Made by a program: the position numbers and the translations under genes. From an uncultured bacterium (GTDB lineage Bacteria > Patescibacteriota > Minisyncoccia > UBA6257 > GWB1-50-10), in the NCBI GenBank assembly GCA_963722655.1, contig CAVRNT010000002.1, positions 7,461 to 71,460 on the forward strand: a DNA stretch of 64,000 nt, in the 5' to 3' direction. How positions within the stretch are numbered: position 1 is the stretch's first letter; every line of letters starts with the position of its first letter. Positions 3,191 through 55,329 of the stretch are shown piece by piece. The notes beneath the pieces were generated by a model, which saw only the letters and a list, made by a program, of their open reading frames with translations, did not search any database and was not told where the DNA came from.

Positions 3191-4903
3191 ATGGCCAAGG
3201 AAGTTGACCTGATAAAGGAAAAATTGAATTTGGTTGATTTTCTGCGGTCCTACGTCACCCTCCTCCCCGCCGGCAAGAACTTGAAGGCGCTTTGCCCCTT
3301 CCATTCGGAAAAGACAGCGTCCTTTATGGTTTCGCCGGAACGGGGCGTTTGGCACTGCTTCGGCTGCGGATTGGGCGGCGACATCATCAAGTTCGCGATG
3401 CTCTACGAGCATCTGGAGTTCCCCGAGGCCCTGCGTTTCTTGGGCGAGAGGGCCGGCATTCCCATCCAGACTTTGAGCCCGGCCCAGCAGCGTGAGTTCG
3501 GCATCCTTTACGACCTCCAGAACGTCGCCAAGGATTTCTACAAGGAGGCTCTGCAAAAAAATCCGGGCGCCCTCCAGTACCTCAAAGCGCGGGGCCTCTC
3601 GGACGAAACGATCGATGAGTTTGATCTCGGTTACGCGGCGGGCGGCGAGACCCTCGTCCTCCATCTCTTGCATGAAGGATTCGATGTCTCGGACGTCGTC
3701 CGGGCTGGACTCGCCCAGAAGAACGTCCGCGGCCTCTACCGCGATAAGTTTTCCGGCCGAGTGATCTTCCCGATCGCGAACCAGGTGGGGAAGACCGTGG
3801 GCTTCACCGGCCGGCTATTGCCCGACGACCCCTCGGTCAAGAATGCCACCGTCGAGCTCCCCAAATACCTGAACTCGCCCGAGACGCCCATCTTCAATAA
3901 ATCCCGCGTCCTCTACGGTCTGGGAAAGACCAAGCAGGCGATCGCCGAGGCGCGGAGCGTCCTCATCGTCGAGGGCCAGATGGATTTTTTGATGGCCTGG
4001 CAAACGGGCGTGAAGAACATCGTCGCCGTTTCCGGCACCGGCCTCACGCCGCAGCACCTGGAACGTCTGCGGAGCCTGGCCGACACGGTTTTGGTCAGCT
4101 TCGACAACGACGAGGCGGGCCTCCGGGCGCTCGAAAGGAGTTTGGCCAATTTCCATAACTTCGATTTTCACGTGAAGGTCATCGACCTCGGTGAGTTCAA
4201 GGACCCGGCGGACGCGGTGCTCGCCGATCCGGTTTTCTTCAAACAGGCGGTTGAATGGGCGAGGCCCGCGATGAAGCACATCTTCGGCGTCTACTTTTCG
4301 CCGAAGGTCTGGAAGGAAGGGGACATCCCGCTCCAAAAGCGGATCTTACGCCACCTCTTGGGCGAGGTCGGCACCTTGAAGAGCGCCGTCGAACAGAACA
4401 TTTGGATCAAGGAGATGGCGAAGCTCTCCGGAATTTCCGAGAACGCCTTGAACGAAGAAATGGCGGAACTGGGCGGCAGTTCCGCGGGCGGCGGGGTGGA
4501 AGGCGAGACGGCCGCGGCGCCGGATTTGGACCGCCTCGGCGCGGTCGCGAAACGCCTCGTCGCCCTCGCTTTGACAAACGCGGAATTCCTCGCTAAATTA
4601 ATGGAGCATCAAGCGCTTCTCCCGGAAAATTACGTCGCCATCCTCGCCGATCCGCAAGCCGAGGGTTCGGCCTTTCTGGAGCTCCAAGGCGCTTATGAGT
4701 TCGGCGATCTGGACGAGGACAAGAAGCGCAAGGAGTTCGGCGACCTGATCCGCCGCCTGCAGTCCTTCGGTTTGAAGAAAGAATTGGCCGGCGTCAAGAA
4801 GGCGCTCAAATCACCCGAGGCGCGGGAGAACGAGGCGGAGACCGAAAAGCTCTTGAACCGTTTCTCGGACATCACGAAGAAGATGAACGACCTCAACCAA
4901 TAA
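3191..4903 (+). CDS. dnaG: DNA primase DnaG
   Basis: CHC2 zinc finger [11 protein letters not shown]...[16 protein letters not shown] region LIVEGQMD...DNDEAG; followed by rpoD as in the MMS operon. Confidence 0.92.
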
Positions 4904-4904
4904 A

Positions 4905-6125
4905 ATGGCTTTCAAAAGAAAGACCAAAAAGAAGACCAAACGACCGGTCCGCCAGGCCAAGCCGAAGCAGACGGCGCACGAAAAGGCCAAGGCGGCGTCG
5001 GCCAAGAAAGCGCTCAAGAAAAGAAGGCCGGTCGTCGTTCCGGAGGAGTACGCCGGCAATCTGGACGAGCTCGTCCGCCGGGGCCGGAGCCGCGGCTTCG
5101 TGACCGACGCCGAGGTCTTGAACTATTTCCCCGAGGTGGAAAAGAACCTGGCCTATTTGGAAGAGGTTTATGAGCGATTGGAGAAGGAGGGCATCAAGAT
5201 AAAGGAAAGCAGTCCCTTGATGAAGGAGGTCAAAGAGTCCAAGTTCGAGGAGGTCTCGCTCCAAGAGCTCAAGGATGCGACGCGCATCGACCAAGAACTG
5301 CCGGACGCCGTCCAGATGTACTTGAAGGAGATCGGCCGCACGGCCCTGCTCACTTCGGCCGAAGAAAAGGACCTCGCGAAGCGCGCCGAAAAAGGGGACG
5401 AGCTGGCGCGGAAGCGCCTCATCCAGGCCAACTTGCGGCTGGTGGTCTCCATCGCCAAGCGCTACGTGAACCGCTCACCCCGCCTTAGCATCCTGGACCT
5501 CATTCAGGAGGGGAACATCGGCCTTTCGCGCGCCGTGGACAAATTCGATTACCGCAAGGGGTTCAAATTCTCCACTTACGCCACTTGGTGGATCCGCCAA
5601 GCCGTGACCCGCGCCCTCGCGGACTACTCGCGCACCATCCGCATTCCGGTCCATATGGTGGAGACCATCACGAAATACACCCAAACGAAGCGGGCGTTGA
5701 TGCAGGAACTCGGCCGCGAGCCGCTCCCCGAGGAGATCGCGACCGAAATGGGGATGGACGTCAAAAAGATCCACTACATCCAGAAGATCTCGCAGGAGGT
5801 TATCTCGCTCGAAGCACCGATTGGCGAGAGCGAGGATGATCTCACCCTTTCCGACTTCATCAAGGACGAGCAGAGTTTGAGTCCGGACCAGTTGGCCAAC
5901 CAGGCACTATTAAAGGACCAGATCCGCGAGATATTGGACGACCTCACGGAGCGCGAGAGGAGGATCCTCGCGATGCGCTTCGGCTTGGACGACAACATCC
6001 CGCACACCCTGGAAGAGGTGGGGAAGGTTTTCGGCGTCACGCGCGAACGCATCCGGCAGATCGAGGCCAAGGCCCTGGACAAGATCCGCCAGCACCATAA
6101 GGCCAAGAAACTCGAGGGTTATTAA
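4905..6125 (+). CDS. rpoD: RNA polymerase sigma-70 factor RpoD
   Basis: Regions 2-4 conserved: [40 protein letters not shown], region 4 [26 protein letters not shown]; Lys-rich N-terminal tail. Confidence 0.92.
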
Positions 6126-29276: not shown

Positions 29277-29351
29277 GGGCGTGTAGTTCAGTGGTAGAAC
29301 GCTGTCCTGATAAGACAGAGGTCCCAGGTTCGATCCCTGGCACGCCCACCA
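29277..29351 (+). tRNA. tRNA-Ile (anticodon GAT), CCA encoded
   Basis: Acceptor GGGCGTG/CACGCCC, anticodon stem CTGTC/GACAG loop CTGATAA, T-arm CCAGG-TTCGATC-CCTGG, 3' ACCA. Confidence 0.85.
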
Positions 29352-51944: not shown

Positions 51945-52094
51945 CCACGGTCAGTTTGCTATACTTAAACAGTCAGATGTTAACCAACCAGTCCATCATC
52001 GTCGTCGGTTTGTCTCTTATCCTCCTTACGGACGGGCGGGTGGTTGGTTTTCTCAAATAATGGACACAGACACCGATTAGAATAAAAAAGAAAA

Positions 52095-52130
52095 CAAGCC
52101 CTCCGCCCCAAGCGGAGGGCTTGTCGTTTC
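52095..52130 (+). terminator. Rho-independent terminator downstream of rplL
   Basis: CAAGCCCTCCGC-cccaa-GCGGAGGGCTTG 12-bp stem then TCGTTTCGT. Confidence 0.6.
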
Positions 52131-52217: not shown

Positions 52218-52409
52218 ATGGACCAGCGAGTCCAAGACAAAGAGAAACCGGTCGAGCAGGTGCTCCGCGTTTTCCATCAAACCAAGAAAAAGGCGGAAGT
52301 GCTCGTATCCGGCACAGGGAAACCGAAGAGGCTGTATGTCGAAAAACAAGGAGACAAATGGCAAGACCAATTCGGCAAACAACACAAACTGTTTTTCCCG
52401 GAGGCCTGA
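52218..52409 (+). CDS. Small basic hypothetical protein (63 aa)
   Basis: ORF preceded by GGAGG SD (AAAGGAGGGAAATATG); no family recognised. Confidence 0.25.
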   Translation: MDQRVQDKEKPVEQVLRVFHQTKKKAEVLVSGTGKPKRLYVEKQGDKWQDQFGKQHKLFFPEA

Positions 52410-52525
52410 AATGAATGAGTTTTAGGAGTGAAAACACCGCTCCGAGACAGCAACACCGTGGGGTGGCGCGACATGCCGCCCCTTTTTCTTGCCTCCTTAT
52501 GGATTTTTACGTATCCTAATGGCGA

Positions 52526-52597
52526 GGGCGTTTAGTTCAGTGGTAGAACGTTGCATTCACATTGCAAAGATCGCTGGTTCGATCCCAGCAACGCCCA
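52526..52597 (+). tRNA. tRNA-Val (anticodon CAC)
   Basis: Acceptor GGGCGTT/AACGCCC, anticodon stem TTGCA/TGCAA loop TTCACAT, T-arm GCTGG-TTCGATC-CCAGC, discriminator A; no encoded CCA. Confidence 0.85.
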
Positions 52598-52661
52598 CTA
52601 AAGTTGCCGAAAGCGACATATTTACCCCACTTAACGGTGGGGTTCCTGCTATACTTATCTC

Positions 52662-53399
52662 ATGAAACACAAAGAGGGGTTTTCGCAGATAGCGGTCATA
52701 TTGATCGCGATTGGGATAGTCGTAATCGGGGGAGCGATATGGTATTTTTCTTCGCGGGGACCTGCGGTTATACCTACTCCAATTTCTCAAAATGAAACCG
52801 AGGGTTGGCAGACATACACTACTAGCAGTTACGGCGGATTTTCATTTAAGTACCCGGCGAATCTCACGATTGCTTATAATGGATCAAATGATACATACAG
52901 CCCAATCGTATGGACGGTGGCATTCAGCGATGGAACGGACATAGAGTTAATAACGAAAGATGCGTGGCAGCAATTGGCTAGCTACGAAAAGAATACTATT
53001 TTAGTCTCACCGTCAAGCACATACCAGTTTAATTATCAGCAATTTGAAAGCCCAGATGGTTCAATGAGAGGCGCTTCATGTTTCGAGACGTCGGATGAGT
53101 CGGTTGGGCTACTAGATGCAAATTTTATTGTTGAGGCAATGGATATGAATGGGAATTACATCTTCGTCTCAAGTGTCGATTTGATAAGTGATCCAATGAC
53201 CGATCCGGCATTCAGTGCACTTGATAAACAATACTCGGAGTTATTCATGAGCACGTCAACGGATGCTAATATGAGAGCAGAGCAATTTAAGAATAACGAT
53301 ATCGTGAATTACTTCAACAGCCCTCAGGCACGCCAAGACGCATCGAGCACCGTAAAAGAAGTGGAGCAGATAGCATCCTCTGTGCATTTCAACCAGTAG
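52662..53399 (+). CDS. Membrane-anchored extracellular hypothetical protein (low GC)
   Basis: N-terminal TM IAVILIAIGIVVIGGAIWYF; remainder beta-rich, no motif. Confidence 0.45.
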   Translation: MKHKEGFSQIAVILIAIGIVVIGGAIWYFSSRGPAVIPTPISQNETEGWQTYTTSSYGGFSFKYPANLTIAYNGSNDTYSPIVWTVAFSDGTDIELITKDAWQQLASYEKNTILVSPSSTYQFNYQQFESPDGSMRGASCFETSDESVGLLDANFIVEAMDMNGNYIFVSSVDLISDPMTDPAFSALDKQYSELFMSTSTDANMRAEQFKNNDIVNYFNSPQARQDASSTVKEVEQIASSVHFNQ

Positions 53400-53433
53400 G
53401 GATCGAATGCATCAAGAGCCGTTCCATAATTAT

Positions 53434-53575
53434 CCCTTCCGTCATTTTCTCTCACCTTTCCCTGTGGATTTCTTTCTCGTACAATGACCATATGGCAGGG
53501 GAAGATGTAGGTCTTCGAAGATCTTCTCAAAGAAGAAAGTTCTAACATCCTCCACTAACCTCCACAAAAGTTGCC
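53434..53575 (+). repeat. Direct repeat copy 1 (about 140 bp, about 85% identical to 54545-54685), internally hairpin-forming
   Basis: Shared blocks CCCTTCCGTCATTTTCTC...TTTCTTTCTC...GGGGAAGATGTAG(G/A)TCTTCGAAG(A/G)TCTT..CAAAGAAGAAAGTTCTAACATCC(T)TCACTA..CTTCACA. Confidence 0.6.
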
Positions 53576-53591
53576 GCTTTAGTCATAAAAA

Positions 53592-53617
53592 CCCATCTTC
53601 TCGGATGGGCTTTTTTG
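53592..53617 (+). terminator. Rho-independent terminator following repeat copy 1
   Basis: CCCATC-ttctcg-GATGGG then CTTTTTT. Confidence 0.5.
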
Positions 53618-53706
53618 TGGGATAGTATAGGAATGAATCCCAGTAAAAAAATAAAAGTGCCGATCCTTATTAAGGACTATGTCTCTAATGCGGAAGCTGC
53701 GGTAAG

Positions 53707-54102
53707 GTGAAACCATTTTTAGCTGGTTCTGATCAACTGGAATACACCGAGGGCGACCTGCTTTACCGAGACGTCTACTACACCGGCAACGGCCTCTTCA
53801 TGGGCTTGGAGGTCGTACATCTCAAAGGGAAGCCGGTGCTTTCGATGTCTTACTACGGCAACTTCAAGAAGATGACCGAGGAAGAGGTTGACGGCGTTTT
53901 AAAACAAGCCCTACTTGCTACCGCTAACACTACCCGAATCTGGAAGCACGCGGAATGGGAGAAAGGGGAATACAAATACGTCTGCGAACCGGACTTTGAT
54001 GGTTCACTCGACGAGTTCGCTGGCCTGGAACAGATATCCAAGTCAAGTGAGAGTGTTTACCGCTTTTTCTATGCCGGCGGCTTATTAAACGAACTAGCGT
54101 GA
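53707..54102 (+). CDS. Hypothetical protein (131 aa)
   Basis: ORF in the repeat-bracketed cassette, 4-nt overlap with the next gene; start may be GTG; no family recognised. Confidence 0.4.
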   Translation: MKPFLAGSDQLEYTEGDLLYRDVYYTGNGLFMGLEVVHLKGKPVLSMSYYGNFKKMTEEEVDGVLKQALLATANTTRIWKHAEWEKGEYKYVCEPDFDGSLDEFAGLEQISKSSESVYRFFYAGGLLNELA

Positions 54103-54533
54103 AGATACTGTTCGTCTGCAAGGGCAATGTTGGTAGGAGCCAGATGGCTGAGGCGATTTTTAATAATCTCGCCAAGGGAAATCATCATGCCTATTCCGCA
54201 GGGACATGGGTCTATGATAAGGAAGGTAAGAGTCTAGAAGGGCAAAAGATAGAAGAGGTAGATGAGGCATTGGTTGTCATCAACTCCCTGAAAGAGCTGG
54301 GCATCGATGTTTCCAAGAAACAACGAAATCAGGTTACACCAGAAATGATCAGGGAAGCAGATAAAATTGTTGTTATGGCGGAAGAACACACTATTCCCGA
54401 CTTCCTAAGAATCAGCGATAAGGTCATCTACTGGGAAATTGAGAACCCTAAAGGTATGGACCAATTAGATACAAACAAGATACGTGATCAGATAGCTGAT
54501 CGTGTTAGAAAATTAGTGTCCGAGTTAGATTAG
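54099..54533 (+). CDS. Low-molecular-weight phosphotyrosine phosphatase / ArsC-like (LMW-PTP fold)
   Basis: P-loop ILFVCKGNVGRSQMAEA (CX5R-S), single Cys, later aspartate (DxxD) region; 144 aa. Confidence 0.7.
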   Translation: MKILFVCKGNVGRSQMAEAIFNNLAKGNHHAYSAGTWVYDKEGKSLEGQKIEEVDEALVVINSLKELGIDVSKKQRNQVTPEMIREADKIVVMAEEHTIPDFLRISDKVIYWEIENPKGMDQLDTNKIRDQIADRVRKLVSELD

Positions 54534-54544
54534 GTTATGAATTG

Positions 54545-54685
54545 CCCCTTCCGTCATTTTCTCCTACCTTTTCCTGTTAATTTCTTTCTCCTATGATTAC
54601 TCCATGGTAGGGGAAGATGTAGATCTTCGAAGGTCTTGTCAAAGAAGAAAGTTCTAACATCCTTCACTAGCCTTCACAATGGACA
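54545..54685 (+). repeat. Direct repeat copy 2 (overlaps truB start region)
   Basis: See copy 1; ends at the truB ATG (54679). Confidence 0.6.
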
Positions 54686-55329
54686 GGATATTCGCCGTTT
54701 GGAAGCCTAAGGGGCCGACGTCGCACGACATCGTGGACCAAATCCGGCGTGCGATGGGGGAATATCGGGTCGGCCATGCCGGCACGCTTGACCCGCTCGC
54801 GTCCGGCATCTTGGTTATCGCGACGGGTAAGAGTACCAAACTCCTAGGGCGACTCGTAGACAAGGACAAGGAGTACATTGCGAAAGTGAAGCTCGGCGAA
54901 TACAGCTCGACCGATGATACGGAAGGCGAGAAGACGCGAGTTAAAAACGCACCGAGACCAAAGAGATCGGGGGTCCTGAACGCCTTATCCAAATTCGTCG
55001 GTGAGATAGACCAAATACCTCCCACCTATAGTGCCGTGAAGATTGCTGGCCAAAGGGCCTACCAGCTCGCACGGGAGGGGAAGGCGCCAAATTTGAAACC
55101 CCGGCGCGTCTTAGTTAAGGAGATTAGACTCATCTCCTATAAATGGCCTTATCTTAAGTTTAGAGCGATGACCGGCCCAGGCGTTTACATCCGGGCTTTG
55201 GCCCGAGACATCGGCCAAATGCTTGGCAGCGGCGGATACCTGACGGAACTGAAGCGGGTTAGGGTTGGCGATTTTCGGAAAGGCGATTGTATATCCATAC
55301 AAGATTTGGTAAAATTAAAAGGTAAATAA
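54679..55329 (+). CDS. truB: tRNA pseudouridine-55 synthase
   Basis: GHAGTLDPLASGILVIATGKSTKL catalytic Asp motif, VWKPKGPTSHD N-terminus. Confidence 0.9.
   Translation: MDRIFAVWKPKGPTSHDIVDQIRRAMGEYRVGHAGTLDPLASGILVIATGKSTKLLGRLVDKDKEYIAKVKLGEYSSTDDTEGEKTRVKNAPRPKRSGVLNALSKFVGEIDQIPPTYSAVKIAGQRAYQLAREGKAPNLKPRRVLVKEIRLISYKWPYLKFRAMTGPGVYIRALARDIGQMLGSGGYLTELKRVRVGDFRKGDCISIQDLVKLKGK

Follow-up and report, generated by a model that had tools for sequence, protein, structure and literature searches.

Between tRNA-Val(CAC) and the ATG of truB, in a 64-kb stretch of DNA from an uncultured Patescibacteriota bacterium (contig CAVRNT010000002.1, positions 7,461–71,460; this whole stretch is called the window, and coordinates refer to it), lie 2,080 nt with three genes, bounded by two kinds of direct repeat. 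We propose, with a probability of about 0.5, that the longer repeats (R1 and R2) are the conserved end-pieces of two foreign cassettes lacking a recombinase gene, which inserted in tandem between tRNA-Val and truB. The elements follow one another in the order tRNA-Val, a1, secreted-protein gene, R1, a2, DUF5680 gene, low-molecular-weight protein tyrosine phosphatase (LMW-PTP) gene, R2 and truB, where a1 and a2 are the copies of the shorter repeat; the three junctions are termed J1 (tRNA/a1), J2 (R1/a2) and J3 (R2/truB). The cassettes so delimited measure 0.97 and 1.11 kb and carry one or two genes each (Table 1).

R1 and R2 were returned by a repeat search as a single repeat family of 140 nt each, in direct orientation, alignable without gaps and 85% identical, and neither nhmmer nor blastn found further copies in the window beyond these two; a third occurrence of CATAAAAGTTGCCG, at 1146, was rejected as a chance match inside an ABC-transporter gene. 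R1 begins 29 nt past the stop codon of the 245-aa secreted-protein gene, ends in CCTCCAC/AA and is followed by a canonical intrinsic terminator within a2 (stem 53592–53609, then a T-run). R2 begins 7 nt past the phosphatase stop codon and ends in CCTTCAC/A, its tail reading CAC-A-ATG, the final base of the repeat also serving as the A of the truB start codon (ATG at 54679). A first-pass annotation of the window had described direct repeats of about 140 bp and about 85% identity, the first between a low-GC secreted-protein gene and a terminator and the second running into the truB start; all of this holds, although its coordinates lay ~6 nt too far to the right and overshot the 3′ end. The same annotation had noticed that the 3′ end of the first copy is echoed directly after tRNA-Val. 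The echo (52595–52609 versus 53562–53576) is identical at 14 of 15 positions, with a local-alignment score reached by 2 of 500 shuffles, and it proved to be the beginning of a longer repeat, a1/a2, which runs in register for 45 nt from 52599 and 53566. The two a copies are identical at 28 of 45 positions (62%), a value reached by none of 20,000 shuffles (p < 5e-5), and when the first 11 nt are left out 18 of 34 positions still agree (p = 0.0004). Both contain AAAGTTGCCG, a spacer and then, at equal distance, a hairpin. R (140 nt) and a (45 nt) would together make up a putative boundary module, R/a, of ~190 nt.

Table 1. Features of the tRNA-Val–truB insert and the genes that flank it
Feature	Coordinates	Strand	Basis and characteristics
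tRNA-Val(CAC)	52526..52598	+	ARAGORN; Rfam tRNA, 73 bits
a1, putative left-end module of cassette 1	52599..52645	+	TAAAGTTGCCG, spacer, hairpin CCCCAC/GTGGGG; no T-run
Secreted-protein gene, 245 aa, putative cargo of cassette 1	52662..53399	+	Open reading frame (ORF)
R1, putative right-end module of cassette 1	53428..53567	+	Repeat search; three-way alignment with L036
a2, putative left-end module of cassette 2	53566..53615	+	AAAAGTTGCCG, spacer, intrinsic terminator
DUF5680 gene, putative cargo of cassette 2	53707..54102	+	Pfam PF18931, E=1.6e-21
Low-molecular-weight phosphatase (ArsC-like) gene, putative cargo of cassette 2	54099..54533	+	Pfam LMWPc, E=2.6e-17
R2, putative right-end module of cassette 2	54540..54679	+	Repeat search; alignment
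truB, host gene to the right of the insert	54679..55329	+	Pfam TruB_N, E=5.5e-47

The positions at which homology starts and stops argue for insertion by recombination. Five junctions, namely J1, J2, J3 and those of two other contigs, L036 and L014 (L-numbers denote other contigs compared with the window), were lined up on the trinucleotide CAC, and in all five the homology changes over directly after CAC, which puts the switch at one and the same dinucleotide boundary. To the left of it, J2, J3, L036 and L014 resemble one another (19–27 of 30 positions), and J1 has the tRNA itself, whose 3′ end (GCCCAC) bounds the insert on that side. To the right, J1 and J2 agree at 19 of 30 positions, and L036 is alike after a shift of 1 nt; past CAC, J3 enters truB and L014 enters a recombinase gene. 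A common switch point of this kind is what site-specific recombination yields, unlike divergence or an RNA gene. Moreover, the order t/a-X-R/a-Y-R/b, with X and Y standing for the cargo and t and b for the flanking tRNA and truB, is exactly the product of two successive integrations of a-cargo-R circles at one site.

Base composition and the state of the locus in relatives point in the same direction. The GC content of the insert is 0.443, compared with 0.559 and 0.575 for its flanks, and R and a are as low in GC as the cargo genes. Relatives with truB 66–71% identical to that of the window (the best named truB homologs belong to Portnoybacteria, Harrisonbacteria and similar groups) keep the order gyrB-L10-L7/L12-small ORF-tRNA-Val-truB-mraZ-rsmH, the tRNA-Val being 100% identical to that of the window in L003, L037 and L039, and the spacer between tRNA-Val and truB measures 2 nt in L039 and L040 and 33 nt in L003, L037 and L038. 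In L001 (7823–8003) and L002 there is a second tRNA-Val of different sequence, followed by ~100 nt and then the truB ATG; these ~100 nt end in an exact 16-nt remnant, TCCCAGCAACGCCCAC, of the 3′ end of the window-type tRNA-Val, and the arrangement looks like either a tRNA replacement or an old integration scar. In L041 (527–1096; truB 66% identical) the gap is filled by a YkuD (L,D-transpeptidase) gene, which starts 2 nt past the tRNA and overlaps the truB start, and which is another, independent occupation of the site. R, the cassettes and a are absent from the tRNA-Val–truB junction of all of these relatives (L001–L003 and L037–L041). Since the junction differs among relatives, the site is variable and what the window has there is a 2.08-kb insertion. 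The first-pass suggestion of an att-like duplication and insertion beside tRNA-Val is supported by this variability, together with the low GC content, the 45-nt a repeat and the breakpoints at the common CAC.

Over 5,934 nt spanning the region, the window matches L009, a Logan assembly made from run ERR10755942, with 100% identity, although the reads of L009 may be the same as those behind the window; as R1 and R2 differ by 15%, an artefact of repeat collapse or mis-joining is unlikely. A search for sister strains by way of identical truB and L7/L12 proteins led back to the same sample only.

Sequences resembling R also occur at unrelated loci elsewhere. In exact scans, a 21-mer from R had no match among contigs of species-representative genomes and one among metagenome contigs (L014), a 23-mer had none among metagenome contigs, and viral contigs gave one chance match of 24 nt (L010) and nothing more; blastn of phage and plasmid collections gave no match. 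An 18-mer was found at 22 loci in genome contigs, about the number estimated to arise by chance in 596 billion bases. When a profile built from R1 and R2 was applied to these loci, 21 of the 22 stayed at or below 10 bits or were unlisted, and the other one, L036, reached 35 bits over profile positions 2–131. L036 comes from another candidate-phyla bacterium, whose M50 protease has 37–64% amino-acid identity to that of the window (tblastx). Its R lies ~30 nt past the stop codon of a sortase gene, continues into the a-like sequence GCAGTTGCAGCT and opens a 1.3-kb stretch with a GC content of 0.38–0.43 in a background of ~0.5. Identity between L036 and R1/R2 is 69–77% over the first 65 columns and 62–64% over the last 45, the middle 31 columns being at random level (11–13 of 31 identical, 35–42%); aligned with R2, the 5′ 65 nt give 78%, which exceeds the best DNA match between the M50 genes (71%).

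In L014, a short (1.5-kb) and error-prone contig, at least the last 41 nt of R stand at the contig edge and end at the common CAC, matching R1 at 25 of the 30 positions up to the terminal CAC. Only 10 nt separate the end of R from the stop codon of an oppositely oriented gene for a large serine recombinase, which is fragmented in three ORFs (Pfam Resolvase, 3.9e-5; Recombinase, 0.0037). A serine recombinase of the L014 type beside R is absent from the window and from 8 kb of L036, and viral contigs held no relatives of the L014 recombinase.

Taken together, these observations are consistent with a model in which R and a are the two halves of a ~190-nt boundary or attachment module of small cassettes. 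Each cassette would once have been a circle with a joined R/a site, and recombination just after CAC at the tRNA end would have produced tRNA/a1 as an attL-like junction. The inner junction, R1/a2, would then be an intact attP-like site between the cassettes, and the outer junction, R2/truB, an attR-like hybrid. The recombinase would have been supplied in trans instead of being encoded in the insert, and R1 and R2 would be alike as related end-pieces of two elements, not by virtue of a common RNA fold. A more far-reaching version of this model, which we rate as rather unlikely, would make R/a the attachment site of an undescribed family of ~1-kb recombinase-less cassettes in Patescibacteria, stacked head-to-tail at tRNA 3′ ends by a recombinase acting in trans, possibly a large serine recombinase of the L014 type, with the end-piece also carrying a promoter; such a system would be integron-like without attC hairpins.

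Several results weigh against tandem cassette insertion. The R-type sequences known total four, one of which is a contig-edge fragment reached through a 21-mer seed, and the sequence of the insert itself is known from one sample only, so that excised circles and empty sites, of which none was seen in this population, could not be looked for. In L036, R sits to the left, not to the right, of the low-GC stretch, and a second R was not found in the 8 kb of that contig. A search of the window for genes similar to those of E. coli XerD and the L014 recombinase gave no match, which is a weak test in that it did not cover other recombinase and transposase families. The R ends match the tRNA 3′ end poorly (10 of 16 positions for R1, 7 of 16 for R2), with only CAC in common; classical tRNA-targeting elements leave copies of the tRNA end, which these repeats are not. 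Further, an outward promoter in R is hard to reconcile with the a2 terminator that lies directly downstream of R1, and the YkuD gene of L041 is accompanied by neither R nor a, so that the site can gain genes in other ways too.

The main null model is a plain segmental duplication, in which R would be the native sequence upstream of truB and a the native tRNA-Val trailer, the a-R unit being duplicated by replication slippage or unequal crossing-over, with unrelated genes landing in each copy later. The presence of two R copies only in 64 kb, the outcome of the recombinase search, the divergence of 15% (R) and 38% (a), which resembles neutral decay, and the ratio of 4 synonymous to 11 non-synonymous differences in the small ORFs of R all agree with this model. 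It would, however, require at least three events, among them two separate insertions of genes at corresponding places between a and R, and breakpoints falling exactly at the tRNA end and at the truB ATG; it would leave native sequences that are missing from the junction of every relative and that are, like the cargo, low in GC. The first-pass annotation had regarded two copies, missing from relatives and without structural covariation, as the mark of a simple recent duplication. The window does hold two copies, the relatives have no R and covariation was not seen (see below), but R-like sequence is found in L036 and L014, the former with the R/a unit at an unrelated locus of a distant genome and the latter with R ending at the common CAC. 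On balance, we consider a plain duplication unlikely.

The first-pass annotation had also raised the possibility that R is a MITE-like unit, that is, a non-autonomous transposable element akin to miniature inverted-repeat transposable elements (MITEs). R is indeed a discrete unit of ~140 nt with sharp edges in three contexts and occurs in more than one genome, but neither the sequence nor the list of inverted repeats contains terminal inverted repeats or a target-site duplication, the copies are direct and number two in 64 kb, and the right edge runs into the conserved partner a in two of four cases; we regard this origin as highly improbable. Xer/dif-type modules and transposon ends were likewise rejected on sequence grounds. 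A decayed tRNA was rejected as well: a stringent local alignment of R to tRNA-Val gives the 15-nt echo only, and ARAGORN and Rfam report nothing.

A further proposal was that R acts as a structured RNA of the plus strand. R1 would then be an attenuator ahead of the DUF5680 and LMW-PTP genes and R2 a translational leader of truB, or R1 and a2 together would form a small RNA of ~120 nt that starts at a promoter in R and ends at the terminator. The layout of copy 1, with a −10-like box, ~100 nt, a terminator and an ORF, suits such a role, and long-range pairing between two invariant blocks, CAUUUUCUC and GAAGAAAGU, is possible in each of the three full-length sequences (R1, R2 and L036). The 9-bp and 5-bp stems described in the first-pass annotation are present in both copies as written, and four changes within them keep pairing on the plus strand only. 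The changes are not compensatory, as had been claimed, but one-sided transitions (G-C to G-U, U-A to U-G, G-U to A-U) without any double compensatory change, and, as about half of stem transitions keep the pairing of one strand by chance, four of them are weak evidence.

Energy and covariation analyses gave no sign of a conserved fold. The minimum free energy (MFE) z-scores of the plus strand are +0.30 (R1), −1.47 (R2) and −0.56 (L036), and for neither strand does any of the three stand out against shuffled sequence. In Rfam, R matches no family at the gathering threshold, and at E values up to 10 the region 52400–54800 contains nothing besides the tRNA; the RNAalifold covariation term for the R1/R2/L036 alignment is −0.1. 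L036 retains 8 of the 14 proposed pairs (57%), compared with 45–57% when the 3′ partners are shifted by 1–3 columns, a comparison of three sequences with low power, and the 3′ strands of both stems fall in the middle segment that is not conserved in L036. The first-pass annotation had asked whether truB of relatives carries the same leader without the cassette; in seven related contigs it does not; DUF5680 and LMW-PTP homologs elsewhere lack R as well, and the genes downstream of R (DUF5680, truB or none) have no common function and belong to no single gene family. A structured regulatory RNA is therefore not supported as an explanation of R, and we give it a low probability.

A role of R in transcription deserves separate consideration. 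The three full-length R sequences have, in the same alignment columns, a −10-like hexamer of the form TAnnAT (TACAAT at 53481–53486 in R1, TATGAT at 54593–54598 in R2, and TAAAAT), which varies at positions 3 and 4 only, and the genome uses canonical TATAAT promoters, as well as AGGAGG, elsewhere. The corresponding −35 regions are weak (TTTCCC, TTTTCC and TTATTT), and a promoter scan did not call the site. The truB start codon is conserved with relatives, and no Shine-Dalgarno sequence precedes it in the window or in any relative. As the truB ATG of L039 (1449–1535) and L040 (115–200) lies 2 nt past the tRNA-Val end, with no Shine-Dalgarno sequence, truB appears normally to be co-transcribed with tRNA-Val and released as a nearly leaderless mRNA. 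The insertion places a hairpin (a1) and a terminator (a2) between the two genes, and R2 may now supply the promoter and 5′ untranslated region (UTR) of truB by means of its predicted TAnnAT box; the weak −35 regions and the terminator directly after R1 call for caution in regarding R as a promoter.

One could go further and take R to be chiefly a portable promoter/5′-UTR module, duplicated for driving downstream genes. The conserved TAnnAT box in a genome with canonical −10 boxes, and the severance of truB from a tRNA-Val promoter with the tRNA only 2 nt before truB in L039, both speak for this view. Against this stand the weak −35 regions, the failure of the scan to call the site, the position of R1, which would fire straight into a terminator, and the fact that the best-conserved blocks of R are at its 5′ end and near the CAC boundary, outside the promoter region. 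The a1/a2 repeat and the common breakpoint would be left unexplained, and we judge it improbable that promoter activity is the main reason for the repeat.

Within R, two 7-mers stand 11 nt apart (53550–53565 and 54662–54677), the second at the CAC boundary, both reading CCTCCAC in R1 and both CCTTCAC in R2; the corresponding pairs, equally spaced, are CCTCTAC/GGTCCAC in L014 and TCTGTAC/GGAGCAC in L036. Such pairs could be paired protein-binding sites, although the concerted change of the two 7-mers could be due to chance alone (rough estimate, p ~0.07). A coding function of R was rejected, as the small ORFs of either strand are not kept in L036. On the minus strand, an ORF of 37–41 aa accounts for the 4 synonymous and 11 non-synonymous differences between R1 and R2 and has no L036 counterpart; the minus-frame peptide VGENDGRGN coincides with the conserved block, but the R2 frame has stop codons. 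A 17-codon ORF on the plus strand (53493–53546 and 54605–54658), encoding MAGEDVGLRRSSQRRKF in R1 and MVGEDVDLRRSCQRRKF in R2, starts a few nucleotides past the site in R where transcription is predicted to begin, and both copies end at the same TAA; L036 has no such ORF, which makes it unlikely to be meaningful.

The 245-aa protein of cassette 1 has an N-terminal membrane or signal segment, and its gene has a GC content of 0.439. It matches no Pfam family, and among 1.84 billion representatives 3 proteins, itself included, reach E ≤ 1e-10, most other matches spanning just the N-terminal 70–110 residues; by sequence comparison the protein appears to be essentially an orphan. The DUF5680 protein of cassette 2 has homologs of 153 aa that are up to 78% identical. 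The window gene is without ~22 N-terminal codons of these homologs (MDK..FLLKARTKTYAGSGG): the homology starts at CGSCGKVKP, right after an in-frame TAA, the frame upstream has stop codons (region 53616–53760) and GTG at 53707 is the sole start codon. The protein collection contains a few versions of 129–132 aa, and the short form may be either tolerated or decayed; the N-terminal loss suggests decaying cargo and was counted in favour of the cassette interpretation. The start of the phosphatase gene overlaps the DUF5680 stop codon, and the best phosphatase homolog is 67% identical. In other genomes, DUF5680 and phosphatase homologs stand in other contexts and are not linked to each other, and R was found near neither.

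Two of these contexts involve tRNA genes. In L006, a 30-nt 3′ fragment of a tRNA-Ile(GAT)-type gene (3401–3430), identical to the end of the window tRNA-Ile (29277–29349), lies 38 nt past tRNA-Ile(TAT), is followed by CAC/AAAAATC and precedes bPH_2, DUF5680, a 499-aa ORF and tRNA-Val(GAC); DUF5680 genes may often travel as cargo beside tRNA genes. A 61%-identical phosphatase homolog (L011, 885–1403; L012, 496–1014) starts 8 nt past tRNA-Lys, with a SpoU methylase gene after it.

Other differences and constants of the locus lie outside the insert. The gyrB gene of L003 (2421–5657) carries an intein, its product having 1,078 aa compared with 649 aa in the window, and L001 has a Band_7 gene (4707–5810) between gyrB and L10 that is absent in the window. 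A strong bidirectional hairpin (ACAAGCCCTCCGC..GCGGAGGGCTTGT) at 52094–52124, 3′ of L7/L12, is kept in L001, L003 and L039, as is a 63-aa ORF without a Pfam family (52218–52409), which has a good AGGAGG site and precedes tRNA-Val.

Candidate-phyla bacteria have small genomes, and to our knowledge little has been learned about how they gain genes. Here, two ~1-kb units without a recombinase gene are stacked at a tRNA end, and their 190-nt boundary module is also met in other genomes of this kind. Should it be active as a recombination site, it would offer a cheap route for shuffling accessory genes, such as those for surface proteins and phosphatases, and a sequence handle with which more such cassettes could be found; if the repeats are only decayed scars, the locus is an ordinary genomic islet. 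It also shows how the essential gene truB may stay expressed once cut off from its usual tRNA promoter.

Integron cassettes and clusters of attC sites lacking an integron-integrase (CALINs) resemble the insert in being head-to-tail arrays of one- or two-gene units without a recombinase, with a recombination-site-like module of similar size at the 3′ end (attC, 57–141 nt) that is split on linearisation. In contrast to attC, R/a has no hairpin formed by R''/L''...L'/R' inverted repeats, and its array starts from the end of a tRNA gene instead of attI. An assignment to attC was rejected: TTCTAAC and GTTGCCG do not fit RYYYAAC and GTTRRRY, respectively, J3 has no GTT, and the 30 nt separating TTCTAAC from GTTGCCG are rich in pyrimidines and lack self-complementarity. 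Copy 1, with its possible promoter, ~100 nt, terminator and ORF, resembles riboswitch or attenuator leaders and small RNAs, as does copy 2 in reaching a start codon; unlike such leaders, R has no Rfam family, energy signal, covariation or fixed gene family, and it is absent before truB in relatives.

Closer parallels are provided by tandem islands at the ends of stable-RNA genes. The ssrA islands of Dehalococcoides stand in tandem and have a CcrB-type serine recombinase gene on the reverse strand beside attL, with an extra element-derived conserved sequence by the repeat, and some lack the integration module; the vcrABC islands are roughly 12 kb in size (PMC3146451). With these islands, and with those of the staphylococcal cassette chromosome (SCC) and pseudo-SCC types that employ large serine recombinases, the insert has in common tandem small islands directly 3′ of a stable-RNA gene or the end of a conserved gene, repeat boundaries with adjoining conserved sequence, low GC content, a break in synteny and members without integration genes; the layout with a reverse-strand recombinase at the boundary is seen for R in L014. 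Their repeats are, however, ~15–20-bp copies of the target end, as opposed to a 140-nt module matching the tRNA at 10 of 16 positions, and the cassettes described here are 0.97 and 1.11 kb instead of ~12 kb, with no recombinase linked to the window copies.

Cis-mobilizable elements (CIMEs) have no integration or transfer genes, keep attL- and attR-type ends and accrete in tandem (PMC5704250). The insert is similar to CIMEs and to the accretion described for ICESt1 and ICESt3 in lacking integration and transfer genes, in its tandem arrangement at a tRNA 3′ end and in the internal att-like site between neighbours, but CIMEs are defined by att sites that work with a known tyrosine integrase, whereas the sites in the window are candidates, and no parent element was identified for the cassettes. 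With integrative islands and CIMEs in general, the insert has in common its insertion 1 nt past tRNA-Val (52598), opposite a short junction in relatives, a distinct composition and cargo unrelated to the neighbouring genes; it has neither tRNA-derived direct repeats nor an integrase within the element, its genes encoding the orphan protein, DUF5680 and LMWPc. In how it would work, the insert resembles CIME, SCC or ssrA-island accretion, but because no recombinase is linked to it and its repeats do not copy the end of the tRNA, membership in any of these families is unproven. The most suitable label is that of a small tandem islet that lies at a tRNA gene, carries no recombinase gene and has a conserved module of 190 nt at its boundaries; it looks like a modest example of a familiar type of genomic islet.

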